Source: an uncultured Eubacteriales bacterium (GTDB lineage: Bacteria > Bacillota > Clostridia > Oscillospirales > CAG-272). From it: a stretch of 64,000 bases of DNA. Of the stretch, positions 17,263 through 57,502 are shown piece by piece. The notes below the pieces were generated by a model. The model made no database searches and was not told the origin of the DNA. It was given only the letters and a program-made list of their open reading frames with translations. The stretch spans positions 181 to 64,180 of the forward strand of contig CASGAQ010000007.1 of the NCBI GenBank assembly GCA_949299535.1, written 5' to 3'. Every line of letters starts with the position of its first letter. Within the stretch, counting starts at the first letter, position 1. The position numbers were made by a program, and so were the translations under genes.

Positions 17263-17417
17263 CTTTACGCATTGTTTAATATATTGAAATCAGGCGCTGT
17301 TTTTTGTTACAAAAAACAAATAAATAGTACTTGAAAGTAATGCCGCTTATGGTATATACTATACACGTAAAGACAAATTGCTGTTCCTTGGAAAATATTA
17401 AGATAACGGAGAAAATT

Positions 17418-18617
17418 ATGTACTGCACAAAAAAAATAACTGAAGATCTTACATGGGTCGGCGCAAATGACCGACGCCTTGCGATGTTTGAAGGCGTTTA
17501 TTCCGTCCCCGACGGCGTTTCATATAACTCATACATTCTCAAAGACGACAAAACGGTGCTGTTTGACACGGTGGACAAAGCCGTTTCAAAAGTGTTTTTT
17601 GAAAATATAGCTCACGTTCTCGGAGAAAGAAAGCTCGACTATATTGTAGTCCACCACATGGAACCCGACCACTCCGCAACGCTCGAAGAACTGGTATGCC
17701 GCTATCCCGAAGCTAAGATAATCTGCAACGCGAAAACGCTTGCAATGATAAAACAGTTCTTCGACTTTAATGTCGAAGATAAAGCAGTTCTCGTAAAAGA
17801 GGGCGACGTTTTTGAAACTGCAAATCATAAATTCACATTTATAATGGCTCCCATGGTACACTGGCCCGAGGTCATGGTGAGCTTCGACAGCGCTACGGGA
17901 ACGCTCTTTTCCGCAGACGCTTTCGGTACGTTCGGCGCGCTCAACGGCGCTATATTCGCTGATGAAGTTGATTTCATGCGCGACTATCTTGACGAGGCAA
18001 GACGCTATTACGCAAATATAGTCGGTAAATACGGACCTTCCGTAACAGCGCTTCTCAAAAAAGCGAGCGCTCTCGATATAAAGATGATATGCCCGCTCCA
18101 CGGTTTTGTCTGGAGAGAAAACATCGGCGCATATATCGATAAATACCTGAAATGGGCGGCATATACACCCGAAGAAAACGGCGTTATGATAGCTTACGCC
18201 TCCGTATACGGCAATACGGAAAACGCAGCCGAGATAGTTTCCGCCAAACTGCGCGACAAAGGAATAAAGACCGTCATGTACGATGTCTCCGTAAAACCCG
18301 CCTCAGATGTTATCGCCTCCGCGTTCAAATGGAGCCATCTCGTTTTCGCTTCCGCAACTTACAATGCCGGCATATTCGTCAAGATGGACGAATTTCTGCG
18401 CGACCTTGCCGCTCACAATATCCAGAACAGAACAGTTGCTTTTATTGAAAACGGCTCTTGGGCGCCCGTTTCCGGCAAGCTTATGAAAGAGATTCTCGCG
18501 CCTTGCAAAAATATGAATTTCATCGAAAAAACGCTCAGCGTAAAATCATCTCTCAAACCCTCTCAGGAAGAGGAGCTTTGCGAGCTTGTTGAAAGCATAG
18601 CGGCAGATTTTCAGTAA
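17418..18617 (+). CDS. flavodiiron protein (FprA-type O2/NO reductase: metallo-beta-lactamase-like plus flavodoxin domains)
   Basis: The diiron motif HHMEPDHS is present and the C-terminal half is flavodoxin-like. The start was moved to the ATG at 17418, which follows a GGAGA RBS. Confidence 0.85.
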   Translation: MYCTKKITEDLTWVGANDRRLAMFEGVYSVPDGVSYNSYILKDDKTVLFDTVDKAVSKVFFENIAHVLGERKLDYIVVHHMEPDHSATLEELVCRYPEAKIICNAKTLAMIKQFFDFNVEDKAVLVKEGDVFETANHKFTFIMAPMVHWPEVMVSFDSATGTLFSADAFGTFGALNGAIFADEVDFMRDYLDEARRYYANIVGKYGPSVTALLKKASALDIKMICPLHGFVWRENIGAYIDKYLKWAAYTPEENGVMIAYASVYGNTENAAEIVSAKLRDKGIKTVMYDVSVKPASDVIASAFKWSHLVFASATYNAGIFVKMDEFLRDLAAHNIQNRTVAFIENGSWAPVSGKLMKEILAPCKNMNFIEKTLSVKSSLKPSQEEELCELVESIAADFQ

Positions 18618-18748
18618 TATAGTTTGAACAAGGCTCATATATCAATGAAAGTAGGAAGATGAGAACCGCCGTACCTTACGCACCTCAAACGGCGCGGCGG
18701 TTTCCCGTCTTTTGACAATAAAATAACATACATAAAGGAGATCTTATA

Positions 18749-18913
18749 ATGAAATACGTTTGCACACTTTGCGGTTATATTTACGATGAAGCGCTCGGCG
18801 ACAGCAATGAAGATATAGAAGCCGGCACCGAATGGGACGAACTTCCCGAAGACTTCGCCTGCCCTCTCTGCGGAGCAGACAAATCCATGTTCGAAGAAAC
18901 GGCTGACGAATAA
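18749..18913 (+). CDS. rubredoxin (54 aa; absent from the ORF track because it is under 60 aa)
   Basis: The translation is MKYVCTLCGYIYDEALGDSNEDIEAGTEWDELPEDFACPLCGADKSMFEETADE. It contains two CxxC pairs. An AAGGAG RBS lies 8 nt upstream. Confidence 0.9.
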   Translation: MKYVCTLCGYIYDEALGDSNEDIEAGTEWDELPEDFACPLCGADKSMFEETADE

Positions 18914-18947
18914 TACGTCCGACGTTATTCGCTTTTGAAAGCTTTAT

Positions 18948-18989
18948 AAAAAAATCCTCAGACTACTTTCGATGTCTGAGGATTTTTTT
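18948..18989. terminator. bidirectional terminator
   Basis: The hairpin AATCCTCAGAC...GTCTGAGGATT is flanked by an A-run and a T-run. It lies between the rubredoxin gene (+) and the end of the arg-car transcription unit (-). Confidence 0.85.
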
Positions 18990-19170
18990 ATTCGGATTTC
19001 GTGTCGTCTGAGCCGTTTTTTTCTTTCGCATCATTCGATTTCTCATCGAAAATCTTACGCCGTTCTCTCTCTCGCTTTTCCGCCTTTATATTAAAACTGA
19101 CGGTGGAGATGACGGAAAGCACAAAAAGCAAGATAACGACGCCTATCGCAATATATCCCGAAACGCCCAT
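18988..19170 (-). CDS. small single-pass membrane protein, hypothetical (60 aa)
   Basis: The ATG at 19170 lies 6 nt after GGGAGG. The protein has one TM helix and a K/E-rich tail. Function is unknown. Confidence 0.4.
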   Translation of the reverse strand: MGVSGYIAIGVVILLFVLSVISTVSFNIKAEKRERERRKIFDEKSNDAKEKNGSDDTKSE

Positions 19171-19201
19171 TTTTTCCTCCCGAAATATTTTTGCTCTGAC
19201 G

Positions 19202-22200
19202 TTAATATTCGGTAACGCCATCGTAAACGAATTTTGCATCTCCCGAAAGAGTGACGCCGTCGTTCTTATAGTTCACAACAAGGTCGCCTCCGTTAAGTTT
19301 TACTGTAATATCTTTGCCCTTTTCGCAATAACCGTTCTCGCACGCGGCGACGACCGCGGCGCACGCACCCGTACCGCACGCAAAAGTCTCGCCGCATACT
19401 TTTTCATATACGCGCATTTTTATCGTCGTGCTGTCAATAACGCGCACGAACTCCGTATTCACTCCCTCCGGAAAGATCGGAGACTGCAAAAACGCTTTGC
19501 CCAGACTATTTATATCAAGTCCTTCCACCTTGTCGTAAAATACGACGCAGTGCGGACTGCCCATTGAAACGCACGTGATTTTCTGCTCCGTTCCGCCTAT
19601 ATTGACGCTCTGCCCGATTATCTTGCCGGAAGCCGTCTGAAGCGTACACGGTAACTCCGCGCCCGCAAGCAACGCTCTGCCCATATTGACGGTGACATAC
19701 GTCACTTTTCCTCCGCCGGTGTATACGTTCATGTGTCTGACACCATTTACCGTTTCAACGGAAATACATGATTTTGCACATATGTTCTTATCATAGAGAT
19801 ATTTCGCCGTACAGCGTATGCAGTTGCCGGCAATAGCGCTCTCACTTCCGTCGCGGTTGAATATGCGTATGCGAGCGTCTGCCTTATTCGAACGCTCGAT
19901 AAGCACAACACCGTCCGCACCTACGCCGTAATGACGGTCGCACATTGCTATGCACAACGACTCCGGCGAGGTTATACTTCCGTCGAAATTGTCGATAAAT
20001 ATATAGTCGTCGCCGCAGCCCTGCATTTTGGAAAAACGCAGTACGGCGCGCTCTTTTCTTCTGTTGTTGAGATCCACGAGCTCCGTGTTGGAGTCATTGT
20101 ATCTGTCGCGCAGCACCTTTGCAAATGTCATCGCCGCAGGCAATGAGGAAAAACACAAAGCTCCGTTTTTCAGCGCCCTGCGGTGAAGCGCTATGTAATC
20201 TTTTACGGTGGAATCGTAAAGAGCGCCGGCATAGAGCACGAATCCTATCTTGCCTGAATTCAAAAGCGAGGCGCCGTCATCGTTTTCGCGCACGCCGCGC
20301 ACCGTTTCCGCGTTTATGCCGATAGCGCCGAGCCAGCGCGCCGTATCAGACGTGGCGTATATTCTCGCACCTATCGATTCAAACTTTCTTGCAATGGCAG
20401 GCAGATCAGGAAGATAATGCTTTTCTGCGCTGAGCAATACTCCTTTTTCGCGCGTTATTTCAAATCCGGCGGCGCAAAACGCCTTATAAAAAGCCTCATA
20501 GAATGTTCTTCCGACGCCCATGGTCTGACCGGTCGCTTTCATGCGAGGACCTATATAAGAGCCTGCGTCCGTAAGCTTTTCAAAAGAATATACGGGAGCT
20601 TTTACGGCGACATACGGCGGTACGGGGCATATGCCCTTGCCCGCTCCTATGGAAGCAAGAGAACTTCCCGCCATGACCTTTACCGCAATATCCATTGCCG
20701 GTATGCCGGAAGCCTTGGAAATGAACGGAAGCGAACGTGAAACGAACGGCGATATATCGGTAACATATAAGGCGTTTTTATATATGAGAAGCTGAAGATT
20801 TATCATTCCGCGCACGCCGATGGCAACGGCTATCTTTTCGGCAATTTCCGCCGCTTCTGTGATTATCTTATCGCTCACGTCATACGGAGGATATACAGCG
20901 ACGGAATCGCCCTCAAGCACGCCTGCGCGCTCGATATGCTCTATCACCGCGGGGATAAGAACGTCCTTGCCGTCCGATATCGCCGTTATCTCAAGCTCTT
21001 TTCCCTCCATATATTTATCCGCTATGACGGAATTTGTGCCGCCGTCAAGCATTCTCTTGACATAGAGCTTGACTTCCTTATCGTCTTTGGCAACAACGAT
21101 ATTCTGACCGCTGCTCAAATGCTCAGGGCGCAGGACAACGGGATATCCCAGCTTTTCGCAGACGCGAAGAGCCGCCTCATTCGTTTTGATATATTCCGTT
21201 TCGGGAAGGACATAAGCAAACTTTTTCAGTATCTCTTGAACGCGCACGCTCTCCATGCCGAATATTATATCGGCGTCCGCTCCGAAAACCCTGACTCCGT
21301 TCGATATAAGAAATTCCGCAAGTCTTGCCGCGCGTGCCGTTCCGAACGGCAGAAAAACGCCTACAGCGCTCTCGGCTCTGAACACGTTCAAAACATCTTC
21401 TTCAGAACTCGGCTCGAGATAAACTCTGTCAGCCAGACCGTGATCTGCGGAAACGCCGTCTGGATCGCAACTTATGAGGGCGACTTCATACCCGAGCGAG
21501 CGAAGCGTCTTTATGCAGCGCACCGCTGAGTAATCAAACTCGGCTCCCGCGCCTATCCTCACAGGACCTGACGATACGACGAGCGCTATGGGACCGCCGC
21601 TTCTTTTTGACTTGCGCGATTCGCATACGTCGTCATATGTCGAATAAAAACACGGCGACATCTCGCTTCGCTCCTGTCCGCACGCGTCGATCGCCTTGTA
21701 TACGGCGGCGCGCTTTCTGCGAACGGTATCGCCGGATATCTTCTCTATGGAAAGGTCTGTATAACCGAGTTTTTTCGCTTTAATGTATTTTTCATCGTCA
21801 AGACCTTTTGCAAGTTCTTTTTCGAAGTCGGAAATGTGTTTTATCTTGTTTATAAAGAATGAATCTATATTCGTGATATCCCGTATCTCCTCGGCGGAAA
21901 CGCCGCTTGAAAGCGCTTCGAATATCGTGAATAGACGCAGATCGTCCGCATTCTCCAGCCGGTCTTCTAAAGATATGTCTTCATCATACTCGCGGTGAAG
22001 TCCATGTGAATCGGGATTCGTTCCGCGCACGGCTTTTATAAGAGCCGCCTCAAAGCACGGCGCCGCGGCAACAGCCGCCCCCGTGGATTTCATATGCTGT
22101 CCCAACAGACGCGAAACCTTTGCAAATTTATCGAACGGCCATTTCGGAAGTCTGAGCGCGACATAATCCTGTTTCGGCTCGAAAAACGCGCTTTGCTTTC

Positions 22201-23218
22201 CGGAAGGAACTATTTTCACCTCGTCAAGCGAACAGCCGAGCGCCAGATCCGACGCCGTATAAGCTATCGGATATCCGGTAGCACGCTCCGCAAAAGAAGC
22301 GCCTCGCGAAAATCCGACGGTTGCTTCCGTTACGACATATTCAAATTCATCATGTGCAACGGCAAATCTTACACCGCACCAACCGACTGCTCCAAGCGCC
22401 GCGGCGGTCTTTATCGCCATGCTCCTCAGCTCGTCATATTCGCCGGCTGAAAGCGTGAGCACGGGTGTAACCTGCGCGCTGTCGCCGGAATGTATGCCGA
22501 CAGGATCTATATTTTCGATACTGCATACTGCGGCGGCAGAGCCGAATTTATCCCTCAGGACATCTATCTCTATTTCCTTGCGCCCGAAAATATATTTTTC
22601 AACTATGACTCTCTTTGAATGAGAGGCGCCGAGAATCTCCGAAACGATAATTCTCAGCTCTCTGGGAGTATGAGCCGTGCGAAGCTCGCACTTTCCGTAT
22701 TCGGCTGAACTTCTGAGCGTTACGGGATATCCCAGCTTTTCCGCGGCGGCACATGCCTCGTTTGCATCTGCGGCGCTCCTATAAGGAACTGATGGTATTT
22801 CCGCGCCTTCAAGCGTTTTGCGGAACAACTCCGCATCTTTTGTGCGCGATATGGTGTCTTCGCTCACGCCTATGAGCTTTACGCCGAAATCATCAAGAAA
22901 GCCCTTGCGTGAAAGCTCCAGCGCAATGGCAAGAGAATTTTCGCCACCGAAAGAAGCGAAAAGCGCATCGGGTCTTTCTTTTTCTATTAACCTTTTGACC
23001 GTATTGACCGTAAGCGGCTCCAAATATACCGCATCGGCAAGCTCTCCGTCCGTCATTACGCAGGCCGGGTCCGGATCGAGAAGGACCGTAAAAATACCTG
23101 CCTTTCGGAAAACTCCCAAAGACCTGACTCCCGCATTGTCAAACTCCGCTGACTGACCGACAACATCGGCGCCGGCTCCCACAATAAGTATCTTTTTTAT
23201 ATTTCTGTCACGAGGCAT
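19202..23218 (-). CDS. divergent carbamoyl-phosphate synthase large-subunit paralogue fused to a DapF-like (diaminopimelate epimerase fold) domain
   Basis: The first ~1059 of 1338 aa are collinear with CarB (both ATP-grasp halves and an MGS-like end), but the catalytic motifs are eroded. The last 279 aa carry DapF signatures: FSKMQGCGDDY, VSMGSPHCV and GETFACGTGACAA. Confidence 0.8.
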   Translation of the reverse strand: MPRDRNIKKILIVGAGADVVGQSAEFDNAGVRSLGVFRKAGIFTVLLDPDPACVMTDGELADAVYLEPLTVNTVKRLIEKERPDALFASFGGENSLAIALELSRKGFLDDFGVKLIGVSEDTISRTKDAELFRKTLEGAEIPSVPYRSAADANEACAAAEKLGYPVTLRSSAEYGKCELRTAHTPRELRIIVSEILGASHSKRVIVEKYIFGRKEIEIDVLRDKFGSAAAVCSIENIDPVGIHSGDSAQVTPVLTLSAGEYDELRSMAIKTAAALGAVGWCGVRFAVAHDEFEYVVTEATVGFSRGASFAERATGYPIAYTASDLALGCSLDEVKIVPSGKQSAFFEPKQDYVALRLPKWPFDKFAKVSRLLGQHMKSTGAAVAAAPCFEAALIKAVRGTNPDSHGLHREYDEDISLEDRLENADDLRLFTIFEALSSGVSAEEIRDITNIDSFFINKIKHISDFEKELAKGLDDEKYIKAKKLGYTDLSIEKISGDTVRRKRAAVYKAIDACGQERSEMSPCFYSTYDDVCESRKSKRSGGPIALVVSSGPVRIGAGAEFDYSAVRCIKTLRSLGYEVALISCDPDGVSADHGLADRVYLEPSSEEDVLNVFRAESAVGVFLPFGTARAARLAEFLISNGVRVFGADADIIFGMESVRVQEILKKFAYVLPETEYIKTNEAALRVCEKLGYPVVLRPEHLSSGQNIVVAKDDKEVKLYVKRMLDGGTNSVIADKYMEGKELEITAISDGKDVLIPAVIEHIERAGVLEGDSVAVYPPYDVSDKIITEAAEIAEKIAVAIGVRGMINLQLLIYKNALYVTDISPFVSRSLPFISKASGIPAMDIAVKVMAGSSLASIGAGKGICPVPPYVAVKAPVYSFEKLTDAGSYIGPRMKATGQTMGVGRTFYEAFYKAFCAAGFEITREKGVLLSAEKHYLPDLPAIARKFESIGARIYATSDTARWLGAIGINAETVRGVRENDDGASLLNSGKIGFVLYAGALYDSTVKDYIALHRRALKNGALCFSSLPAAMTFAKVLRDRYNDSNTELVDLNNRRKERAVLRFSKMQGCGDDYIFIDNFDGSITSPESLCIAMCDRHYGVGADGVVLIERSNKADARIRIFNRDGSESAIAGNCIRCTAKYLYDKNICAKSCISVETVNGVRHMNVYTGGGKVTYVTVNMGRALLAGAELPCTLQTASGKIIGQSVNIGGTEQKITCVSMGSPHCVVFYDKVEGLDINSLGKAFLQSPIFPEGVNTEFVRVIDSTTIKMRVYEKVCGETFACGTGACAAVVAACENGYCEKGKDITVKLNGGDLVVNYKNDGVTLSGDAKFVYDGVTEY

Positions 23219-23219
23219 A

Positions 23220-24242
23220 TCATTCCCTGCCTTTCATCATATCGGCAAATCTGTCGTAAATAAATTCCGTATCGCACCTTGGGCAGAACTGCACCGAAAA
23301 AGCAAGCTTTTCCGGATAAGAAATACCCTCGCAAACGCCGTTGCCGGCGTTTTCAAATATCACTTTTCCTATCTCCTGAGCGTTCTTGACGATATGCGGG
23401 CTTTCACGCCTTACGATATACATTCGACGGCTTTCAAGCTCTCTTACGGGAACGGAGACATTCTCAGCCGGAAACGGAAGCAAAGAAAACTCCGCGCCCA
23501 TCACTTTTGCCATAAGCAAATGCCCAAGAGAAATGCCCATCATCGGGATCTTGCCCGCTATCTCCTTTATCGCGGACAAGTCTGCCTCATAAAGAGCTTC
23601 TTCCGCGCCACCTGAGATCACAACGCCGTCCGGGCATAGCGAGATTATATCTTTTGCCGAAGTTCCCGCAGGAACTACGCGAACCTTGCAGCCGTGTCTT
23701 TGCAGTGCTTTTACGACGCTCGCCTTTGTTCCGCAGTCGATAAGCACGGTAAAAAACCTCTCGCCCATTTCTCCTGTCGCCGAATATGTAGCACAGTCGC
23801 GTGCGGCGGCTTTTGCATAATATTTTTCTTTATGAGGGAAAACCGACGGCACTTCAGAAAATATCCCGGCACGCTCAATACCGTGAGCACGCGCATAATG
23901 AGAAATAAAGCGAGTATCGACTCCGCATACTCCGCATATCCCGCGGAAAAGCATGAAATTTTCAAGTTCGTCGCGGCCTCGGAATTTATCGGGCGCACCG
24001 CGCACGATAAATCCGCCGGCGGAGATATCGCTTTCAACGTCTTCAGAAACAACGCCCAAAGCGCCGCTTTCGGGAAATTCAGATAAAATAATTTTGCCCG
24101 CATTCATAGGATCTGTCAATATCTCCGTATGCGAGCATACGCCTGTAGAGAGAACAAGCTCTCCGCAGGCGTTTGTTTCAGCGCCGAAGCGCTCTCCCTC
24201 AAAAACCATTCCGTCTTCGAGGACTATATATGCTTTTTTCAT
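23220..24242 (-). CDS. divergent carbamoyl-phosphate synthase small-subunit (CarA-like) paralogue lacking the glutaminase triad
   Basis: The 340-aa protein has the CarA N-terminal pattern (LEDGMVFEGERFGA). Its GATase-like half reads GISLGH instead of GICLGH and VQFCPRC instead of HPE. It ends 1 nt before the CarB-like start. Confidence 0.7.
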   Translation of the reverse strand: MKKAYIVLEDGMVFEGERFGAETNACGELVLSTGVCSHTEILTDPMNAGKIILSEFPESGALGVVSEDVESDISAGGFIVRGAPDKFRGRDELENFMLFRGICGVCGVDTRFISHYARAHGIERAGIFSEVPSVFPHKEKYYAKAAARDCATYSATGEMGERFFTVLIDCGTKASVVKALQRHGCKVRVVPAGTSAKDIISLCPDGVVISGGAEEALYEADLSAIKEIAGKIPMMGISLGHLLMAKVMGAEFSLLPFPAENVSVPVRELESRRMYIVRRESPHIVKNAQEIGKVIFENAGNGVCEGISYPEKLAFSVQFCPRCDTEFIYDRFADMMKGRE

Positions 24243-24244
24243 GT

Positions 24245-25156
24245 TCAGTTCTTATCCTTCATGCACATAACCATGACTGCTTTCTGAGCATGCAGTCTGT
24301 TTTCCGCTTCGTCAAAGATCTCATTCGCGTGAGCTTCAAGAATATCTGCCGTAATCTCTTCTCCGCGGTGTGCCGGAAGACAGTGAAGCACCATAGCGTC
24401 CGGTTTGGCGACGCTCATAAGCTCCGAATTTACCTGATATCCGGCAAATATCTTTTTTCTTTCTTCCGCTTCGGCTTCCTCGCCCATTGACGCCCAAACG
24501 TCGGTATAAACGACGTCCGCGTCTTTTGCGGCTTCGAAAATATCGTCAGTGCAGAGGAAATCTCCGCTCTCGGAAGCCCATTTCATTATGTCCGCATCGG
24601 GTTTATGTGTTTTCGGACAGCCTATCGCAACGGACATTCCCATCTTGATACCGCCGACGATAAGGGAGTTCGCCATATTGTTGCCGTCGCCTATGAAGCA
24701 GAGTTTCTTGCCTTTTATCGAACCCTTGTGTTCACGAATAGTCATGAGGTCGGCAAGCACCTGACAAGGGTGGCAATAGTCCGTAAGTCCGTTGATAACC
24801 GGAATCGAGCCGTATTTTGCGAGATTTTCCACTTCTTCCTGCTCGAAAGTTCTTATCATTATACCGTCAAGATAACGTGAAAGAACACGAGCCGTGTCCT
24901 CTACAGGCTCGCCGCGGCCTATCTGCAAGTCGCGTGGAGAAAGGAACAGCGCACTTCCTCCCAAATCATACATGCCTACTTCAAATGAAACGCGGGTGCG
25001 CGTGGAGGATTTCTGGAATATCATTCCCAAAGTTTTTCCCTTGAGATAATGATGCTCTATGCCGTTTTTCTTGTCATATTTGAGCTGATCCGCAAGATTG
25101 AGTATCTCGATTATCTCTTTTGTTTCAAGGTCCATAAGTTTGAGCAGATGTTTCAT
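24245..25156 (-). CDS. argF: ornithine carbamoyltransferase
   Basis: The motifs STRTRVSFE, HPCQ and HCLPAHRGEE are present. I chose the ATG at 25156, which lies 10 nt after AAGAGG and overlaps the argD stop by 1 nt. Confidence 0.9.
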   Translation of the reverse strand: MKHLLKLMDLETKEIIEILNLADQLKYDKKNGIEHHYLKGKTLGMIFQKSSTRTRVSFEVGMYDLGGSALFLSPRDLQIGRGEPVEDTARVLSRYLDGIMIRTFEQEEVENLAKYGSIPVINGLTDYCHPCQVLADLMTIREHKGSIKGKKLCFIGDGNNMANSLIVGGIKMGMSVAIGCPKTHKPDADIMKWASESGDFLCTDDIFEAAKDADVVYTDVWASMGEEAEAEERKKIFAGYQVNSELMSVAKPDAMVLHCLPAHRGEEITADILEAHANEIFDEAENRLHAQKAVMVMCMKDKN

Positions 25157-26337
25157 TATGCGCATACCTCTTTAATAACTTTTATTGCCTTTTCAAGCTC
25201 TTCAAACGTAATACAAAGCGGAGGAATAAGACGTACTTTATTTTTTGCCGTGAGAAGAAGCACCCCTTTTTCTCTTGCGGCAGAAACGATTTCGGTATTT
25301 TCTTTGTCCGTTTCAAGACCGAGCATAAGTCCCATGCCGGCAATGCTCTTTATACCCTTCGCTCCTGTGAGTTCTTTTACTATATATTCGGATTTTTTTG
25401 TTACATCTTCCAGAAATTCATCCGTAAGGCGCGCAAGTACGTTATTTGCGCCTGCCGCACATACGGGGTTTCCGCCGAAAGTGGCGCCGTGCATACCGGG
25501 CTGATAAATATCCGCCGTCTTTTCGCCGAACATGGTGGCTCCTATCGGAAGTCCCGCGCCTATACCTTTAGCCGTGGATATAATATCGGGTTTTATGCCA
25601 AAGTGCATATATGCATAAAGTTTGCCTGTTCTGCCGTTTCCGCACTGTACCTCGTCGTCTATCATGAGTATGTCGTATTTCTCTGCAAGTTCTGCTATTT
25701 TTGCGACAAACTCTTTTGTAAGAGCCTTCACTCCGCCCTCGCCCTGAACGAGTTCGAACATTATGGCGCAGACTTTGTTTTCGCTCACGTTTTTTTCAAG
25801 AGCAGCGCAGTCATTGGCGGGAGTGTGGATAAAACCGGGCGTCATCGGTCCGAAATGCGTGTGGTATGCAGGCTGACCTGTCGCGGAAAGCGTTGCAAGG
25901 CTTCTGCCGTGGAAGCTGTTTTCAAGCGTGATTATATTGAAATATTCGGGACCTTTTTTTGTAACGCCGTATTCGCGCGCGGCTTTTATCGCACATTCGT
26001 TTGCTTCAGCACCGGAATTGGAGAAGAACACTTTCTTCATTCCCGTGCGCTCGCAAAGCGTTTTTGCAAGTCTTACGCACGGCTCCGAGTAAAAAAGATT
26101 GGATGTGTGCTGGCATTTGCCGAGCTGCTCGGTGACGGCGCTTATCCATTCTTCGTCGCAAACGCCGAAAGTATTTACGGCAACACCCGCACCCATGTCT
26201 ACATATTCTTTTCCTTCATCGTCCTTGAGCATAGCGCCCTTGCCGGAAACTATCTCTACCGGAAAACGTTTGTATGTGTGCGCTATATAAAGCGAATCAG
26301 CCTCTTTTACATTTATATTTGCATCTGTATTTTTCAT
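25156..26337 (-). CDS. argD: acetylornithine aminotransferase
   Basis: The 393-aa protein is a class-III PLP aminotransferase (DEVQCGNGRTG, TAKGIG). It sits in the arg operon. Confidence 0.9.
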   Translation of the reverse strand: MKNTDANINVKEADSLYIAHTYKRFPVEIVSGKGAMLKDDEGKEYVDMGAGVAVNTFGVCDEEWISAVTEQLGKCQHTSNLFYSEPCVRLAKTLCERTGMKKVFFSNSGAEANECAIKAAREYGVTKKGPEYFNIITLENSFHGRSLATLSATGQPAYHTHFGPMTPGFIHTPANDCAALEKNVSENKVCAIMFELVQGEGGVKALTKEFVAKIAELAEKYDILMIDDEVQCGNGRTGKLYAYMHFGIKPDIISTAKGIGAGLPIGATMFGEKTADIYQPGMHGATFGGNPVCAAGANNVLARLTDEFLEDVTKKSEYIVKELTGAKGIKSIAGMGLMLGLETDKENTEIVSAAREKGVLLLTAKNKVRLIPPLCITFEELEKAIKVIKEVCA

Positions 26338-26339
26338 TC

Positions 26340-27221
26340 TTAATCTCCTATCTTATCTCCGGAAATAAGCATAGTTCCCATACCTTCGTCGGTAAGAGTT
26401 TCTATGAGAAGTGAGTGCGGCACTCGTCCGTCGATAATAAACACTTTCTTCACACCGCGGCGAATTGCTTCCGTGCAACATTCAACCTTGGGTATCATAC
26501 CGCCGCATATTATGCCGTTTGAAATGAGTTCATGCGTGTCACTTACGCATATAGTGGAAATAAGCGAAGAAGGATCGTCCTTGTCGCGCAAGATGCCGCT
26601 GATATCCGTCATGGATATAAGGCTCTCCGCCGCAAGCGAGCCGGCTATCTTTGCCGCGGCGGTGTCCGCGTTTACATTGTAAGCGTTCCCCTCGCCGTCA
26701 CAGGCAACGGTTGACACTACCGGAATATAGCCTTTGTCGAGAACATCGAGTATTATTTGAGGGTTTACCTCTGTTATTTCTCCGACATAGCCCAGCGCCG
26801 GATCTTTCGGACGCGCCGATATCATGCGTCCGTCTATGCCGGAAAGGCCTATCGCCTTACCGCCTTGAACGGAGAGAAGATTTACAAGATTTTTGTTTAT
26901 CTTGCCGGCAAGAACCATCTGAACTATCTCGACGGATTCCTTGTCTGTTACGCGTAGTCCGTTTACAAATTGCGTCTCTTTTCCCACCTTGGAGAGCATT
27001 TCCGTTATCTCGGGACCGCCGCCGTGTACGAGCACGACCTTTATGCCTATGAGCGAAAGCAGCACGATATCGCGCATTACCGAATCTTTGAGTTCCTCGT
27101 TTATCATGGCGTTTCCGCCGTATTTTACAACAATTATCTTATCCTTGTATTTCTGTATATAGGGCAGCGCATGTACGATGACCTGCGCCCTTTGTGCGTT
27201 ATCTATTTTCATATTTTCCAT
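26340..27221 (-). CDS. argB: acetylglutamate kinase
   Basis: The 293-aa protein belongs to the amino-acid kinase family (VVKYGGNAM, LVHGGGPEI). Confidence 0.9.
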   Translation of the reverse strand: MENMKIDNAQRAQVIVHALPYIQKYKDKIIVVKYGGNAMINEELKDSVMRDIVLLSLIGIKVVLVHGGGPEITEMLSKVGKETQFVNGLRVTDKESVEIVQMVLAGKINKNLVNLLSVQGGKAIGLSGIDGRMISARPKDPALGYVGEITEVNPQIILDVLDKGYIPVVSTVACDGEGNAYNVNADTAAAKIAGSLAAESLISMTDISGILRDKDDPSSLISTICVSDTHELISNGIICGGMIPKVECCTEAIRRGVKKVFIIDGRVPHSLLIETLTDEGMGTMLISGDKIGD

Positions 27222-27276
27222 AGCCGTTCACCTGCAATATTTCAAATATTTTTGCGTTTGTCTTCGATTCTGTTTA

Positions 27277-28497
27277 TCAAGTTCTGTAATCGCCGTTTAT
27301 CTTGACGTAATCGTATGTCAAGTCACAACCCCACGCAACGGCTTCTCCGCTGCCGCTGCCAAGATTTATAAGAACATTTATCTCTCTTTCGGACAAGACT
27401 TCTTTCGCCGTTGCTTCGGAAAAATCTATTCCCGCGCCGTTTCGGCACACATCGACTCTGCCCGCCTTGCTTTCGAACGAAACGTCTATCTTGGAAACGT
27501 CCACGTCTGCGCCGCTGTATCCTATCGCGCAAAGAACGCGTCCCCAGTTTGCGTCAGCGCCGAACATCGCCGCCTTGAAAAGCGAAGACGTTATTACGGA
27601 TTTTGCGACAGTCTTTGCCGTCTCTTTTGTTTCGGCGCCGCTTACGGAACATTCGATAAGCTTCGTGGCACCTTCGCCGTCGCCCGCTATCTTGCGGCAA
27701 AGATAAACCGTTATTGTATTGAGGGCTTTCATAAATTCGGCAAAGTCCTCTCCCTCGCCTGTGATAGGCTCGTTGCCCGCCATGCCGTTTGCCATAACGG
27801 CAACCATGTCATTTGTAGAAGTATCTCCGTCCACGCTTACCATGTTAAACGTGTTCTGAATATCGGAGGAAAGCGCTTTGCGGAGCATTTCCGGAGCGAT
27901 AGCGGCGTCTGTCGTGATGAATACGAGCATCGTTGCCATGTTCGGGTGTATCATGCCGGAGCCTTTTGCAATACCGCCTATATGACATTCCTTGCCGCCG
28001 ACGGTGAATTTTACCGATATCTCCTTTACGACGGTGTCCGTCGTCATAATGCCCTCTGCGGCATTCAAGCTGTTCTCTTTTGAGCTTCCCAGCTCGGAAA
28101 CTAGCAGGGGAAGTCCGACAGCTATAGGAGTGACGTCGAGCTTCTGACCGATAACGCCGGTGGATGCCACGATAACATCATTCGGCTTAACTGCGATATT
28201 CTCCGACAAAAGCGAGCACATCTTCTCGGCAACCTCAATACCGTCTGCGTTGCAGGTGTTGGCGTTGCCGCTGTTGCAGAGGACCGCCTGTGCCACGCCG
28301 TCGCTGATATGTTTTTTCGTGACCGTAAGAGGCGCGCCTTTTACAAGATTAGTCGTATAAACAGCCGCCGCGGATGCGGGAACCTCGCTGTATATGAGCG
28401 CCAGATCGCGCTTTGTTTTGTTTTTGCGTATGCCGCAGTGTATGCCGGCGGCGCTGAAGCCTTTCGCGGCGCAAACGCCGCCCTCTATGATTTCCAT
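27277..28497 (-). CDS. argJ: bifunctional ornithine acetyltransferase / N-acetylglutamate synthase
   Basis: The 406-aa protein carries the autoprocessing motif ATMLVFITTDA. Confidence 0.9.
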   Translation of the reverse strand: MEIIEGGVCAAKGFSAAGIHCGIRKNKTKRDLALIYSEVPASAAAVYTTNLVKGAPLTVTKKHISDGVAQAVLCNSGNANTCNADGIEVAEKMCSLLSENIAVKPNDVIVASTGVIGQKLDVTPIAVGLPLLVSELGSSKENSLNAAEGIMTTDTVVKEISVKFTVGGKECHIGGIAKGSGMIHPNMATMLVFITTDAAIAPEMLRKALSSDIQNTFNMVSVDGDTSTNDMVAVMANGMAGNEPITGEGEDFAEFMKALNTITVYLCRKIAGDGEGATKLIECSVSGAETKETAKTVAKSVITSSLFKAAMFGADANWGRVLCAIGYSGADVDVSKIDVSFESKAGRVDVCRNGAGIDFSEATAKEVLSEREINVLINLGSGSGEAVAWGCDLTYDYVKINGDYRT

Positions 28498-28515
28498 ATT
28501 TATGTACCTCTTCTT

Positions 28516-29454
28516 TTAAACATGCATTGCTTTTGTCTTTTCGGAGCCGATAACAAGATTAAGGCATTCGATAGCCGCGCCGCAGGCGCCCTTGCCGAGA
28601 TTATCATATCTTGCCGTAAGCAATATTCTTTCTTCATTGCCGAAAACGGATATTTCCATCAGGTCCGTTCCGGACTTTTTGCCTGCCGAGATAAATCCCT
28701 CTTCATCGCCGCCGTCAGCATATTTTACGACGGAACCCGTATATTTTTCGGCATAGATTTTTTTAATTTCCCCGATACCGAAACCGTCCGAAAGTTCGCT
28801 TGCGAAAAGCGGAACGGTCACTTCCATGCCGCTGTAAAAATCGGAAACGACGGGGGAGAATATCGGCGCATTTTCAAGCCCCGTTATTTTCTGCATTTCC
28901 GGCAGGTGTTTGTGTTTCTGGGAAAGAGCGTACTGTCTGGGCGCGCCGAGAAGCGTATCTCTGTCCTCCGCCTCGTAATCCGCTATCATCTTTTTGCCGC
29001 CGCCGCTGTAGCCCGTAATCGAGAAACAAGAGAGTTTCGCCGCAGGAGAAAGCGCGCCGCATTCGATGAGAGGATATATCAGCGCGATGAAACCGCTGGC
29101 ATGACAGCCGGGAACGGCTATTCTCTTGGATGTCTTTATCTTTTCCTCAAAAGAGGGAGAAAGCTCAGGAAAACCGTATGCCCATGCCAGATCTGTTCTG
29201 TGCGCCGTAGATGTGTCGATTAAAACGGTTCGGTTGTTTTCGACCATCGCCGCAGATTCTTTAGCCGCCGCGTCGGGAAGACACAGAAAAGCCACGTCCG
29301 CTGAGTTTATGGCTTTGCGTCTTGCGTCCGCGTCTTTTCTCAGCTCTTCCGGCAGAGTGATAAGCTCTATATCATCTCTCTGAGATATTCTTCTGAAAAT
29401 GTCAAGTCCGGTCGTGCCGGCGCTTCCGTCTATAAAAACTTTGCTTTTTAACAT
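28516..29454 (-). CDS. argC: N-acetyl-gamma-glutamyl-phosphate reductase (short, about 310-aa form)
   Basis: The 312-aa protein has an N-terminal GSAGTTG Rossmann motif and the catalytic-Cys motif PGCHASG. It is the first gene of the arg operon. Confidence 0.85.
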   Translation of the reverse strand: MLKSKVFIDGSAGTTGLDIFRRISQRDDIELITLPEELRKDADARRKAINSADVAFLCLPDAAAKESAAMVENNRTVLIDTSTAHRTDLAWAYGFPELSPSFEEKIKTSKRIAVPGCHASGFIALIYPLIECGALSPAAKLSCFSITGYSGGGKKMIADYEAEDRDTLLGAPRQYALSQKHKHLPEMQKITGLENAPIFSPVVSDFYSGMEVTVPLFASELSDGFGIGEIKKIYAEKYTGSVVKYADGGDEEGFISAGKKSGTDLMEISVFGNEERILLTARYDNLGKGACGAAIECLNLVIGSEKTKAMHV

Positions 29455-51978: not shown

Positions 51979-53244
51979 ATGAAGCTTATCCTTAAAGGCG
52001 GAAACGTTTTCACAAACGGCGCTCTTTCCCCTCTCGATATCCTTATAGAAAACGGCTGCATTAAAGAAACAGCTTGCAAAATCGACGACAAAAACGCGGA
52101 TATTATCGATGTTCGCGGTCTTGCCGTCTTTCCCGGTTTTTCGGATGTTCATGTGCATCTCAGAGAACCGGGTTTTTTATCGAAAGAAACGATCAAAACA
52201 GGTACGCTCGCGGCAGCGCGCGGAGGATATACCGCCGTTTGCTCCATGCCGAATCTTTCGCCGTGTCCGGACACGCTCGAACACCTGAAAGTGCAGCTTG
52301 ACGCGATAGAGCGCGACGCCTGCATAAAAGTCGTTCCCTACGGCACGATAACCGAAAGAGAGTGCGGCGAAAAGCTCTCCGAAATGGAAGCTATGGCACC
52401 TTACGTCGCAGCTTTCTCCGACGACGGACGCGGAGTGCAGAACGATGAGATGATGGAGGCGGCAATGCTCAAGGCAAAAAGCCTTGGCAAGATAATAGCC
52501 GCCCACTGCGAGGACAATTCCCTGCTTCGCGGCGGATATATCCACGACGGCGAATACGCAAAAGCACACGGGCACAGAGGCATTTGCTCCGAAAGCGAAT
52601 GGAAACAGGTCGAACGTGATTTGGAGCTTGTCCGCAAAACAGGCGTATCATACCATGTATGCCACATCTCGACAAAAGAAACGGTGGCGCTTATCAGACA
52701 AGCGAAAAAGGACGGTCTTGACGTAACGTGCGAAACCGGTCCGCATTATCTTACCATGACGGACGCAGACCTTATGGAACACGGCAGATTCAAAATGAAT
52801 CCCCCTCTCCGTGCAGAAGAGGACAGACGTGCGCTCGTAGAAGGACTTCTCGACGGCACGATAGACATGATAGCCACAGACCACGCTCCGCACACCGCGG
52901 AAGAAAAAAGCCGTGGTCTTGAAAAAAGCCCTATGGGCGTCGTCGGACTTGAAACGGCATTTTCGGTGCTCTACACCGAGCTTGTAAAAAAAGGCGTTAT
53001 GACGCTCGATATGCTCATTGAAAAAATGAGCGCCGCTCCCGCAAAGCGATTCGGTCTCGGCGGCAGCAAAATAGCGGTCGGAGAAAAAGCAAACCTTTGC
53101 GTGTTCGACCTTGATAAAGAGTACATAATAGATTCTTCGGAATTTTTATCTATGGGCAAAGCGACTCCGTTTGAAGGAAAAAAAGTTTCGGGGCGCTCAA
53201 AAATGACTATTTTTGGAGGTAAAACAGTATGGCAGGAAAAATGA
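51979..53244 (+). CDS. pyrC: dihydroorotase
   Basis: The metal-binding motif is DVHVHLREPG. The start is the ATG at 51979 after AAAGGAGG. The track ORF has a spurious 32-aa extension. Confidence 0.9.
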   Translation: MKLILKGGNVFTNGALSPLDILIENGCIKETACKIDDKNADIIDVRGLAVFPGFSDVHVHLREPGFLSKETIKTGTLAAARGGYTAVCSMPNLSPCPDTLEHLKVQLDAIERDACIKVVPYGTITERECGEKLSEMEAMAPYVAAFSDDGRGVQNDEMMEAAMLKAKSLGKIIAAHCEDNSLLRGGYIHDGEYAKAHGHRGICSESEWKQVERDLELVRKTGVSYHVCHISTKETVALIRQAKKDGLDVTCETGPHYLTMTDADLMEHGRFKMNPPLRAEEDRRALVEGLLDGTIDMIATDHAPHTAEEKSRGLEKSPMGVVGLETAFSVLYTELVKKGVMTLDMLIEKMSAAPAKRFGLGGSKIAVGEKANLCVFDLDKEYIIDSSEFLSMGKATPFEGKKVSGRSKMTIFGGKTVWQEK

Positions 53245-54320
53245 ACAGAAAGATAGTGCTTGAAAACGGAACCGAATTCTTCGGCTTCGGCTTCGGCGCG
53301 CAGGACGCTTCCCGCGTCTGCGAAATGGTATTCGACACTTCGATGGCGGGATATCAGGAAATAGTTTCGGATCCGTCATACGCCGGCGCCGCCGTCGTAA
53401 TGACATATCCGCTCATCGGAAACTATGGTATAACGGATGAGGATTTTGAGGCGAAAACGCCCACGATAGGCGCTCTTATCGTAAGAGAATACAACGATTT
53501 CCCCTCCAACTTCAGATATACGAAAACGCTTTCCGAGTACCTTGAAGAAAATCACATTCCCGGAATATACGGCATGGACACAAGAGAGATCACTCGCTTT
53601 ATACGTGACAACGGCTCTTGCAGAATAATGATAACAGACGCAGATACCCCCGCCGAGGAAGCTGTTAAGGCTATCAAAAACACTCCCGCTTCTGCCGATA
53701 TATATAAAACGGTAAGTTGCCGCAAGAGATGGTATGCCCGCACGGCAAACGCAAAATACAATGTAGTCGCCATAGACTGCGGCATTAAGCTCAGCACGAT
53801 ACGCACGCTCGGAGACATGGGCTGCAACGTAACGGTAATGCCCGCAAATGCGTCGGTAAAAGATGTTGAAATGATGTCGCCTGACGGTATCATCATCTCT
53901 CAAGGTCCCGGCAACCCCGCAGACGCGGCAGAAGTTGCCGAGCTCATACGCGCGCTCCGCGGAAAATATCCGATATTCGGTATCGGTCTTGGTCATCAGC
54001 TTATTGCTCTTGCTTGCGGCGCAACGACGTCTAAAATGAAGTTCGGTCACCACGGCTGCAATCATCCCGTAAAAGACCTTACAACGGGCAATATCGAAAC
54101 ATTTACACAAAACCACAACTACGTCGTCGACGCGGACAGCATCGTCGGAACGGGACTTGAAATAACGCACATTGATATTATTGACAAAACCGTAGAAGGT
54201 CTGAAATGTGAAAAAGACCGCATATTCTCGGTTCAGTTCGAGCCGACAACCATGTCCGGTCCCCTCGGACGCGCCAATCTCTATGAACAGTTTACGGCTC
54301 TTATGAAGGAGGACAAATAA
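53229..54320 (+). CDS. carA: carbamoyl-phosphate synthase small subunit (glutaminase triad not conserved)
   Basis: The protein has the strong CarA pattern [27 protein letters not shown] and [13 protein letters not shown]. However it reads GIGLGHQ and VQFEPTT at the Cys and His-Pro-Glu positions. An alternative start lies at 53241. Confidence 0.85.
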
Positions 54321-54322
54321 TT

Positions 54323-57300
54323 ATGCCGAAAAGAACAGATTTAAAGAAAATACTCGTTATCGGCTCCGGTCCGATTGTAATCGGACAGGCTGCCGAATTT
54401 GACTATGCAGGAACACAGGCGTGCCTTGCACTTAAAGAAGAGGGCTATGAAGTAGTGCTTGCAAACTCCAACCCCGCCACCATCATGACGGATACAACTA
54501 TCGCGGACAAGATATACATGGAGCCGCTCACTCTTGAATATGTCGCAAAAATCCTCCGATATGAGCGCCCCGACGCCATCGTTCCCGGTATCGGCGGTCA
54601 GACAGGGCTTAACCTTGCAATGCAGCTTGAGAAAAAAGGCGTCCTCCGCGAATGCGGCGTAGAGCTTCTCGGCACAAGCAGTGAATCCATAGAGCGCGCG
54701 GAAGACCGCGAAGGCTTCAAAAAACTTTGCGAAGAGCTCGGCGAGCCCGTTCTTCCCTCTCTTATCGCCCACACGGTAGAAGAAGGTCTTGCGGCGGCTG
54801 AAGAGATAGGCTATCCCGTAGTCCTTCGTCCCGCCTTCACGCTCGGCGGCACGGGCGGCGGCTTTGCAGACAACCCCGCAGAATGCACGGAGCTCCTTAA
54901 AAACGGACTCAAACTCTCTCCCGTTTCCGAAGTCCTTGTTGAAAAGAGCATTAAAGGCTACAAGGAAATTGAATACGAAGTAATGCGCGACGCAAACGAC
55001 ACCGCTATCGCCATATGCAATATGGAAAACATAGACCCCGTAGGTATACATACCGGCGACTCCATCGTTGTATGCCCCACACAGACTCTTACGGCAAAAG
55101 AATGCAATATGCTCAAGGAAAGCGCGCTCAAGATAATCCGCGCTCTTAAAGTCGAAGGCGGCTGCAACGTTCAGTTTGCTCTCGACCCCCACTCCTTTGA
55201 ATATTACCTTATAGAAGTAAACCCACGAGTTTCCCGTTCCTCTGCTCTTGCCTCAAAAGCAAGCGGCTACCCCATAGCAAGAGTTACGGCGAAGATAGCC
55301 GTCGGCATGACTCTGGACGAAATAAAACTCGCCAGCGCTCCCGCCGCGTGCGAGCCGACGATAGATTATGTCGTTGCAAAATTCCCCCGATTCCCGTTCG
55401 ACAAATTTGCCGCGGCAAACAACAAGCTCTCCACTCAGATGAAAGCGACGGGCGAGGTAATGAGCCTTGGCAGAACGCTTGAAGAATGTATGCTCAAAGC
55501 AATACGCTCGCTTGAAATAGGCGTATGCCACATATACATGAGCAAATTCGATACGTTCACCGTAAACGAGCTTATGGATTATATCGCGCTCGGCACCGAC
55601 GACCGTTTCTACGCTATCGCAGAGCTTATCCGCCGCGGAGTAGATATAAGCCTTATCGAAAGTGCAACGAAGATAGACATGCTCTTCCTTGAAAAGATAA
55701 GAAATATCGTCCTCATGGAAACAGTAGTAAAGAACGCTCCCCTCGACGTCGAAGTGCTCAGAGATGCGAAGAAAATGGGCTTCTCCGATAAATTCATCGC
55801 ACAGCTTTGGAAGTGCCCTGAAGTTGAAGTTTACAACCTCCGCAGAGCAAACGGCATAATTCCCGTATACAAGATGATAGACACCTGCGGCGCCGAATTT
55901 GCAAGCTATGTTTCATACTTCTACTCAACATACGAGCATGAAAACGAATCCGTCGTTTCCGACAGAAAGAAGATAATCGTTCTCGGCTCCGGTCCCATTC
56001 GTATAGGTCAGGGCGTCGAATTTGACTATTCTTCCGTTCACGCTATCAAAACGATAAAAGATTCAGGCTATGAAGCCATCATCATAAACAACAACCCCGA
56101 AACAGTATCGACAGACTACACGACGAGCGACAAGCTCTACTTCGAACCTCTTACGGTAGAAGATGTAATGAACATCATAGAGCTTGAAAAGCCGGACGGC
56201 GTTATCGCTTCTCTCGGCGGTCAGACGGCTATCAACCTTGCCGCACCGCTCACCGAACGCGGCGTAAAAATAATCGGCACTGACGCAGAAGCGCTTGACA
56301 AAGCCGAAAACCGCGATTCTTTCGAAAAAGTTCTCGAAGCTCTCGATATCCCTCAGCCCAAAGGCAAAGCCGTTACAAAGATAGAGGACGGCGTTGCGGC
56401 AGCCGCTGAGATAGGATACCCCGTTCTTGTACGTCCCTCTTTCGTACTCGGCGGCAGAGCCATGCAGATAGTTGCAAACGAAGAAATGCTCCGCCATTAC
56501 CTCAAGACAGCCGTTGAAATAGACGAGGACAAACCCGTTCTCGTAGACAAATACATCTCCGGCAGAGAAGTGGAGGTCGACGCTGTATGCGACGGCGAAA
56601 ACGTGTTTGTTCCCGGTATTATGGAACTTGTAGAGCGCACCGGCGTTCACTCCGGCGACTCCATCTCCGTATACCCTGCATTCACACTTTCCGACAAAGT
56701 AAAGGAAACTATCCTCGATTACACCAAGAAGCTCGGTCTGGGCATCGGTATCATCGGTCTTTACAATATCCAGTTCATAGTAGACAAGAACGAAAAGGTT
56801 TATATCATCGAAGTTAACCCCCGTTCTTCCAGAACTGTACCGTTCCTTTCAAAAGCAACAGGTTACTCGCTTGCGGATATCGGCACGCTCGCAATTCTCG
56901 GCAAATCCCTGCCCGAACAAGGTATCACACAGATATATCCCGAAGAAAAGAAACGCCACTATGTAAAAGTTCCCGCGTTCTCTTTCTCCAAGCTCCGCGG
57001 TCTTGACGCATACCTCTCCCCCGAAATGAAATCCACCGGCGAAGCTATCGGTTACGACGACAGCCTCAACCGCGCTCTCTATAAAGCGCTCCAAGCTTCC
57101 GGTATGCAGGTTATGAACTACGGTACGGTATTTGCTACTATCGCAGACGCGGACAAGGAAGAAGCGCTTCCTCTCATTCGCCGCTTCTACAACATGGGCT
57201 TCAATATAGAAGCGACCGCAGGTACCGCCGCTTTCCTCAAAGAACACGGTATCCGCACAAGGGTAAGAAAGAAGATAAGCGAAGGCAGCGAGGAAATTCT

Positions 57301-57502
57301 CGATTCCATTCGTCAGGGATATGTGACATACGTTATCAACACAAGAAATCTCGACGCCGCAACGGGAACATCTTCCGACGGTTTCCAGATTCGTCAGTGT
57401 GCAACGGAAAATAACGTTTCCATCTTCACATCTCTCGACACGCTCAAAGTCCTTCTCGACGTACTTGAGGAGCAGACCATCTGCATCTCAACGATAAACT
57501 GA
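54323..57502 (+). CDS. carB: carbamoyl-phosphate synthase large subunit
   Basis: The 1059-aa protein has canonical motifs in both halves: [42 protein letters not shown] and [19 protein letters not shown]. Confidence 0.95.

Follow-up and report, generated by a model that had tools for sequence, protein, structure and literature searches.

The arginine operon and its terminal CarB-DapF fusion

We analyzed a 64,000-nucleotide stretch of contig CASGAQ010000007.1 from an uncultured Eubacteriales bacterium of the order Oscillospirales (henceforth the window, meaning this whole stretch, in whose coordinates all positions are given), with a focus on the last gene of its argC-argJ-argB-argD-argF-carA-carB::dapF operon. 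This gene joins, in one open reading frame (ORF), a CarB-like large subunit of carbamoyl phosphate synthetase (CPSase) to a domain related to the diaminopimelate (DAP) epimerase DapF. The operon and the parts of the fused gene are:

24245..29454, minus strand: argF, argD, argB, argJ and argC, the preceding genes of the operon, with ordinary divergence from the sister species
23220..24242, minus strand: carA partner, 340 aa, glutaminase triad lost
19202..23218, minus strand: carB::dapF ORF, 1338 aa, last gene of the operon
20099..23218, minus strand: CarB-like part, residues 1-1040, full CPSase domain order, 153 of 387 family-invariant positions changed
20042..20098, minus strand: linker, residues 1041-1059 (...NDSNTELVDLNNRRKERAV)
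19205..20041, minus strand: DapF-like domain, residues 1060-1338, predicted two-lobed DapF fold

The CarB end runs into the DapF-like part in a single 1338-codon frame free of stops and frameshifts (19202..23218, minus strand), with a junction that reads ...TELVDLNNRRKERAVLRFSKMQGCGDDY and a stop-free linker sequence, ...TELVDLNNRRKERAVLRFSKMQG. A first-pass annotation of this DNA had proposed such an in-frame fusion with the caveat of a possible assembly indel at the junction; the fusion stands and the artefact is excluded because the identical 1338-aa protein is encoded by nine contigs from independent ENA and Logan assemblies, with one synonymous base difference among the copies compared.

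Profile searches recover both parts. The CarB hidden Markov model (HMM) NF003671 scores 895 bits across residues 1-1039 (cut-off 599), while TIGR01369 reaches 877 bits, under its cut-off of 1027. The Pfam domains follow the CarB order (preATP-grasp, ATP-grasp, oligomerisation, preATP-grasp, ATP-grasp and MGS-like), the MGS-like domain scoring 21.6 bits, under the 24.1 threshold. The DapF HMM TIGR00652 matches residues 1061-1336 with 248 bits within the whole protein and scores 253 bits (E 3e-75; cut-off 115) on residues 1060-1338 alone, and the Pfam DAP_epimerase model (PF01678) adds 178 bits in two stretches. Separate translation of the DapF-like domain from an internal start was considered and rejected, as the linker ahead of the domain holds no Shine-Dalgarno sequence with a start codon (ATG, GTG or TTG); the promoter-like match at 20125-20096 is weak and lies within the shuffled background. 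An 83-aa ORF with a hydrophobic stretch (18988-19239, minus strand) overlaps the final 38 nt of the fused gene; the public contigs annotate it as a gene too, and Pfam gives no match.

Distribution of the fusion

The CarB-DapF fusion is widespread and old in Oscillospirales, where it has more than 120 full-length relatives, and is frequent among gut Clostridia. The full-length query retrieves more than 119 clusters of 1336-1345 aa, called "carbamoyl-phosphate synthase large subunit" where they are named, and the 120 best homologues of the domain are nearly all CarB-DapF pieces from Clostridia, Oscillospiraceae and Eubacterium metagenome-assembled genomes (MAGs). A scan of one genome per GTDB species, each assembly represented once, found the fusion at 56 of the best 80 DapF loci. 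The first-pass annotation knew of no described CarB-DapF fusion: this holds for the literature that we searched, where we found no description, but the sequence databases hold the architecture abundantly under the CarB name (entries read CarB or "DapF, partial").

Two further apparent architectures were rejected. Many matches of 445-490 aa resemble a separate "MGS + DapF" regulatory subunit, and others of 272-284 aa resemble stand-alone DapF proteins with Ala in place of the first catalytic cysteine (Cys73), but every examined case is a gene-call artefact that begins at a conserved Met of PEMKSTGE or of KMQG. N-gaps in scaffolds account for L008 and L013, single in-frame stops for L011 and L012, long-read assemblies with frameshifts for L014 and contig ends for L015. 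The in-frame stops lie at differing positions of carB::dapF in two MAGs or metagenome contigs (L011, 7941-7943; L012, about 4640); each is either a sequencing error or the mark of a young pseudogene, and the spurious 449- and 468-aa "MGS + DapF" database proteins stem from them.

The DapF-like domain keeps the DapF fold and loses the first catalytic cysteine

Residues are numbered after H. influenzae DapF (1bwz) by alignment with it and four other solved DapFs. The positions that matter in the window domain are:

19829..19831, minus strand: Ala (GCC) at the position of catalytic Cys73, residue 1130 of the fused protein
19820..19822, minus strand: Cys at the Gly76 position (the displaced Cys), variable in the clade
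19376..19378, minus strand: Cys217 equivalent, the second catalytic Cys, kept in an ACGTGA motif
20009..20011, minus strand: Asn11 changed to Asp (GDDY)
19556..19558, minus strand: Asn157 changed to Ser, distal carboxylate site, specific to the window lineage
19400..19402, minus strand: Arg209 changed to Lys, distal carboxylate salt bridge, specific to the window lineage

The AlphaFold (AF2) model of the domain has a predicted local distance difference test score (pLDDT) of 92.4, and its best Foldseek matches are DapF crystal structures, with template modeling (TM) scores of 0.87-0.90. Against canonical DapF (H. influenzae 1BWZ/2GKE, B. anthracis 2OTN; TIGR00652, PF01678), the window domain shows the same two-lobed fold at 33-37% identity and keeps Cys217, Asn64, Gly74, Asn75, Asn190 and Glu208; it differs in having Ala for Cys73, Asp for Asn11, Ser for Asn157 and Lys for Arg209, and in its fusion to the C-terminus of CarB rather than a place next to dapL. 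Alignment to the five solved DapFs thus bears out two substitutions that the first-pass annotation had called, Cys73 to Ala and the N-terminal Asn to Asp, and adds the two at positions 157 and 209, which it had missed. At the distal end of DAP, the H. influenzae enzyme binds the carboxylate through Asn64, Asn157, Asn190 and Arg209 and the amine through Glu208 (PMC8225329). The window domain retains three of these (Asn64, Asn190 and Glu208), whereas the consensus of its clade keeps all five. Among 121 close relatives, position 73 is Ala in 111, and position 11 is Asn in 68 and Asp in 52.

A two-base epimerase mechanism for the Ala73 domain is very unlikely, judging from its residues, and this earlier conjecture gains from the comparison across the family: 45 of 65 fused domains lack Cys at position 73, which all 21 stand-alone DapFs retain. 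The displaced Cys, to which the first-pass annotation had drawn attention, can be disregarded. Members of the clade have Cys, Ala, Ser or Asn at position 76, where canonical enzymes have Gly or Ala, and this variability rules it out as a replacement for Cys73, since a substitute base would be conserved. Nor is there a fixed Thr or other catalytic residue at the position of the lost Cys, which is instead Ala, Gly, Ser or Phe.

These residues bear on the earlier idea that the domain is a one-base enzyme with new chemistry, i.e., an elimination or dehydratase reaction or a Cys217-only isomerization, by analogy to the Cys/Thr 3-hydroxyproline dehydratases of the proline-racemase family. Cys217 is kept in 96-100% of the domains, the predicted fold is intact and the fold superfamily does include one-Cys relatives; 3-hydroxyproline dehydratases are among the Foldseek matches (TM 0.72-0.74), and the window domain is 11-15% identical to members of that type. 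The superfamily also holds the O-ureidoserine racemase DcsC (7VDY), the Dab racemase PddB and PhzF. DcsC and PddB keep both Cys, PddB, a DapF relative with a changed substrate, has its distal-site residues replaced (PMC8225329), and the dehydratase fixes Thr at the site of the lost Cys; neither pattern occurs in the window clade, whose Cys73 replacement is unfixed and whose pocket is unchanged from DapF, with no remodeling of the 3-hydroxyproline dehydratase type. There is hence no sign of a new substrate, the DAP-binding residues having been kept, and no neighboring gene points to a new pathway. We consider such chemistry quite unlikely.

History of position 73 and of the dapL linkage

In a neighbor-joining tree of 86 domains, the stand-alone DapFs, all with Cys73, are basal, fused two-Cys domains are intermediate (e.g., Ruminococcus sp. 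FC2018, L050, and Ruminococcaceae bacterium AM07-15, L042), and within the latter nests a large non-Cys clade, whose residue 73 is Ala, Gly or Ser. At least five further independent losses of Cys73, one of them to Phe, are scattered through the tree. From this topology, the missing Cys73 emerges as a derived state of the whole clade.

The genomic context shifts in parallel. The gene 3′ of many stand-alone dapF genes encodes the LL-DAP aminotransferase DapL (TIGR03542, 491-509 bits), with dapL lying just downstream at:

13 of 18 loci of stand-alone dapF
10 of 18 loci of fused genes that keep Cys73
0 of 36 loci of fused genes that have lost Cys73

The loss of linkage is significant by Fisher's test (p = 1.8e-6, uncorrected for phylogeny), and the non-Cys fused genes sit behind argD-argF-carA. 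The two-Cys fused proteins share the architecture, the linker (...NTELVDINxMR...) and the ancestry of the window protein and differ in keeping MCGNG and in having dapL directly downstream in 10 of 18 cases; they are probably true bifunctional enzymes. As the first-pass annotation did not recognize, the fusion likely began as a functional CarB-DapF next to dapL.

That annotation had also raised a separate canonical dapF elsewhere in the genome. None is found by tblastn in the 64-kb window, nor is there a dapL or any other DAP gene in it; one does exist in three related genomes that carry the fusion (L085, L053 and L062, comprising two Acutalibacter MAGs and an isolate of Neglectibacter caecimuris), a coexistence that the annotation had not noticed. 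These genomes represent an intermediate state, with the order carA-carB::dapF, a separate canonical dapF 0-2 genes downstream, and then pyrG and dapL; the two forms of dapF lie at:

L085, 2791-7731
L053, 122-6846
L062, 3428-6855

The fused copy of L062 has lost both cysteines and several pocket residues. Because a canonical dapF coexists with the fusion in these three genomes, the fused domain can be a redundant paralogue.

Degeneration of the arginine CPSase in the window lineage

The first-pass annotation, in speaking of a CarB paralogue, had missed that catalytic residues are lost from both the CarB-like part and its CarA partner. The affected sites are:

22679..22714, minus strand: glycine loop of the N-terminal ATP-grasp, destroyed, now RSSAEYGKCELR
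22295..22330, minus strand: N-terminal catalytic motif, now TEATVGFSRGAS
21098..21130, minus strand: loop of the C-terminal ATP-grasp, RPSYV(I/L)GGQNM changed to RPEHLSSGQNI
20732..20761, minus strand: C-terminal catalytic motif, IEVNPRASRT changed to TDISPFVSRS
23529-23531, minus strand: CarA glutaminase triad, Cys269 is Ser
23283-23285, minus strand: CarA glutaminase triad, His353 is Cys
23277-23279, minus strand: CarA glutaminase triad, Glu355 is Arg

Both EVNPR motifs of the CarB-like part are thus replaced, by TEATVG and TDISPF, and it is the only sequence without EVNPR among 120 homologues. Its identity to other fused CarBs is 45-47%, compared with about 66-78% among those CarBs themselves. 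Of 277 positions without variation in 54 relatives, it differs at 108, and no other sequence at more than 4; the 153 changes at 387 invariant CarB sites listed above were scored against 118 homologues. Change in the CarB-like part is almost equally probable in all conservation classes (0.40-0.54), whereas the corresponding values for the sister lineage drop from 0.54 to 0.01. In the sister species, whose protein is 55% identical and has 140 cluster members, the operon is the same, the motifs of CarA and CarB are intact and residue 73 is likewise Ala; the CarA triad is intact there and in other fused loci. Divergence of the operon's products between the window and the sister species, given as amino acid identity and, where computed, nonsynonymous divergence (dN), is:

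ArgF: identity 0.91, dN 0.08
ArgB: identity 0.85, dN 0.11
ArgJ: identity 0.83
DapF-like domain: identity 0.73, dN 0.20
ArgC: identity 0.71, dN 0.23
ArgD: identity 0.70, dN 0.22
CarB: identity 0.51, dN 0.42
CarA: identity 0.45, dN 0.53

CarA and the CarB part have thus diverged 4-7 times faster than ArgF and ArgB since the split from the sister species. We read this pattern of lost residues and rates as a lineage-specific death of the arginine CPSase with its ORFs kept open. The idea that the DapF-like domain supplies ammonia to a CPSase with a dead glutaminase was rejected, as CarA is intact in other fused loci and in the sister species. The best PDB match of the arginine CarA, in which Ser stands in for the glutaminase Cys, is the E. 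coli C269S mutant (1C30), and the ammonia-dependent mammalian CPS1 (PDB 5DOT) is also among its matches. CPS1 and dead-paralogue 'prozymes' are thus among the nearest parallels, but CPS1 keeps active synthetase sites, whereas the two ATP sites of the arginine large subunit are degenerate. Within the window population, the strain variant P0511 has lost eight residues of CarB in frame (LPFISKAS), from a segment that is normally conserved, and has a Pro-to-Ser change as well; two further variants of the protein bear single substitutions each.

A second CPSase is encoded in the window:

53229..57502, plus strand: second carA-carB pair, inside a pyrC-carA-carB-pyrK-pyrD-pyrF-pyrE-pyrB operon

A two-CPSase arrangement is known from Bacillus. 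Here, the pyr-operon CarB (54323-57502), whose motifs are intact and which carries no DapF domain, is likely the sole source of carbamoyl phosphate, since the arginine CarA is without its triad and both ATP sites of the arginine CarB are without essential residues. The pyr-operon CarA (53229-54320, plus strand) also lacks the glutaminase triad (Cys269 is Gly, at 53985-53987, His353 is Glu and Glu355 is Thr); with the motifs of its CarB intact, the only plausible CPSase is predicted to use free ammonia and not glutamine.

Constraint on the DapF-like domain

The DapF-like domain shows a different regime from the CarB part to which it is fused. In the non-Cys clade, Asn64, Gly74, Asn75, Asn157, Asn190, Glu208, Arg209, Cys217 and Gly218 are 93-100% conserved, Thr at the Ser219 position is 91% conserved, and the ratio of DapF to CarB divergence is alike in Cys-type and non-Cys pairs (0.83 and 0.85). 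In the window protein itself, 4 of 46 invariant sites of the DapF part are changed, and the probability of change falls from 0.29 to 0.09 with conservation; the difference from the CarB part at invariant sites has p = 1.4e-5. The dN of the domain is about as low as those of ArgC and ArgD. Under simulated random mutation to 40% amino-acid divergence, the 1040 CarB codons would take about 27 nonsense hits (minimum 15, 30 runs), while the observed frame is open over all 1040 and the single indel in the population is in frame. Since the domain is not decaying, it should have a function, and because the 4-kb frame stays open and the domain evolves like its working neighbors, this selected role would be independent of CPSase catalysis.

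The same data weigh on the proposal that the whole carA-carB::dapF unit is a non-functional relic left after a takeover by the pyr-operon CPSase, with the DapF-like domain as a passenger. Such a relic would account for the loss of the CarA triad and both CarB active sites, for invariant CarB sites being hit nearly as often as variable ones (0.40 versus 0.50-0.54), for the P0511 deletion segregating in the population and for the extra changes in the DAP pocket of the window domain. It sits poorly with an intact 4017-nt ORF where about 27 stops are expected, with the sole indel being in frame, with the identity of the gene across nine contigs, and with the DapF part, where change is graded by site conservation and dN equals that of ArgC and ArgD; we therefore regard it as improbable.

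A proposed pseudo-epimerase domain with a non-epimerase role

With roughly even confidence, we posit from the residues and their conservation that the DapF-like region descends from a once functional DapF, is now a catalytically disabled pseudo-epimerase and serves some purpose other than epimerization, such as binding or sensing a ligand or contacting a protein. In the likely course of its history, an ancestor of many Oscillospirales had carA-carB next to dapF-dapL; carB and dapF then fused, the two cysteines being retained and dapL remaining 3′ of the fusion; and a copy in arginine operons next lost Cys73 and its dapL neighbor, while retaining Cys217, the DAP-binding pocket and a normal evolutionary rate. 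Such a domain can most likely still close around a DAP-like amino acid but would be unable to relay a proton across the alpha-carbon, and might then have come to serve in ligand sensing or protein contact. Finally, in the window lineage, the CPSase itself died, leaving the pyr-operon CarB to supply carbamoyl phosphate. Whereas gene anatomy, distribution, event order and selection pattern are shown by the data, we infer the loss of epimerase activity, the ligand binding and the nature of the role.

Removal of one thiol from this fold has been done in the laboratory: in H. influenzae DapF C73S and C217S (PDB 2Q9H, 2Q9J) and in the Cys-to-Ser mutants of M. tuberculosis DapF and PddB, the fold stays intact and activity is lost or falls below 0.1% (for the DapF and PddB mutants, PMC8225329). 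These are engineered, whereas the loss in the window clade is natural, ancient and recurrent. A precedent for the DapF fold acting via protein contact is E. coli DapF, a non-catalytic activator of RppH (PMC6061791, PMC4227774; PDB 6D13), although it is, unlike the window domain, an active enzyme and a separate protein, and no RppH link is known for the window.

The chief competitor to a pseudo-epimerase is that the Ala73 domain remains the cell's diaminopimelate epimerase, with Cys217 as one proton carrier and water or some other group as the second, which would also explain the open frame. The clade-wide conservation of Cys217 and of all DAP-binding residues fits this, as do the evolution of the domain at the pace of ArgC and ArgD while CarA and CarB degenerate, the maintenance of the ORF across 1040 degenerate codons with no internal start, and the absence of another dapF in the window by tblastn; E. 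coli, moreover, tolerates very low DAP epimerase activity (bioRxiv 10.1101/2024.10.14.618325). Several lines run counter to it: positions 73 (Ala, Gly, Ser, Phe) and 76 (Cys, Ala, Ser, Asn) vary with no conserved replacement base; Cys73 is lost in 0 of 21 stand-alone DapFs; dapL linkage is gone at 36 of 36 non-Cys loci; canonical dapF paralogues accompany the fusion in three genomes; the Cys-to-Ser mutants retain less than 0.1% activity; and the window domain has, in addition, Ser at 157, Lys at 209 and Asp at 11. On balance, a residual epimerase seems unlikely.

Some observations also count against the pseudo-epimerase interpretation or narrow it. Strict retention of Cys217 and of the whole DAP pocket would be expected of an enzyme as well. 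The tree is neighbor-joining with poorly supported deep nodes, and the separate dapF is seen in three genomes only, two of which keep Cys73 in their fused copies. Synonymous divergence (dS) between the window and the sister species is saturated, such that dN/dS cannot be stated, and the window population is nearly clonal (0.1% divergence), so that dN and the site-class patterns alone are usable. Further, a function that outlived CPSase catalysis speaks against a purely allosteric sensor of the arginine CPSase, which should have decayed with it, and the version of the pseudo-epimerase reading in which the domain regulates that CPSase is weakened for the window lineage.

A more specific and, in our estimate, unlikely form of the pseudo-epimerase reading is that the Cys73-less domain was exapted as an amino-acid-sensing or protein-contact module, with the dead CarA-CarB-DapF assembly acting as a regulatory pseudoenzyme co-expressed with the arginine genes. 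Such a module could recognize DAP or else a compound of similar chain length (ornithine, arginine or citrulline), and its partner could be the remaining CPSase or ornithine carbamoyltransferase, with the effect of directing carbamoyl phosphate into arginine synthesis.

Other genes in the window

The arginine operon is closely followed, on the opposite strand, by a gene for a flavodiiron-type protein (ODP metallo-beta-lactamase and flavodoxin domains; 17331-18617, plus strand). Matching public contigs carry a rubredoxin gene that would fall in the gap at about 18620-18990; genes of both kinds typically serve anaerobes in oxygen or NO detoxification. An ABC-transporter ATPase (ABC_tran and TOBE_2; 6087-7694, minus strand) bears C-terminal Listeria-Bacteroides repeat (Flg_new) domains, which are odd for a cytoplasmic ATPase. 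A GH94 enzyme of the cellobiose/cellodextrin phosphorylase type is encoded at 34846-37131 (minus strand), and another beside carA in Ruminococcus sp. FC2018 (L050, 18-1523).

Implications

CPSase and DapF are textbook enzymes, and their natural fusion is apparently undescribed in the literature that we searched. The more striking feature of the locus is that a whole arginine-type CPSase is, by its residues, catalytically dead while its DapF-like tail still appears to be under selection. The series from adjacent genes through an active fusion and the loss of one thiol to a dead host enzyme with an open frame would be an unusually complete record of the making of a pseudoenzyme, and the Cys-type and sister proteins are ready-made controls for a one-thiol DapF fold. 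Annotation pipelines and metabolic reconstructions of gut Oscillospirales would count the fused genes as working DapF and the window gene as a working arginine CPSase, both probably wrongly, and such miscounts would affect the predicted lysine, peptidoglycan and arginine auxotrophies of these bacteria.

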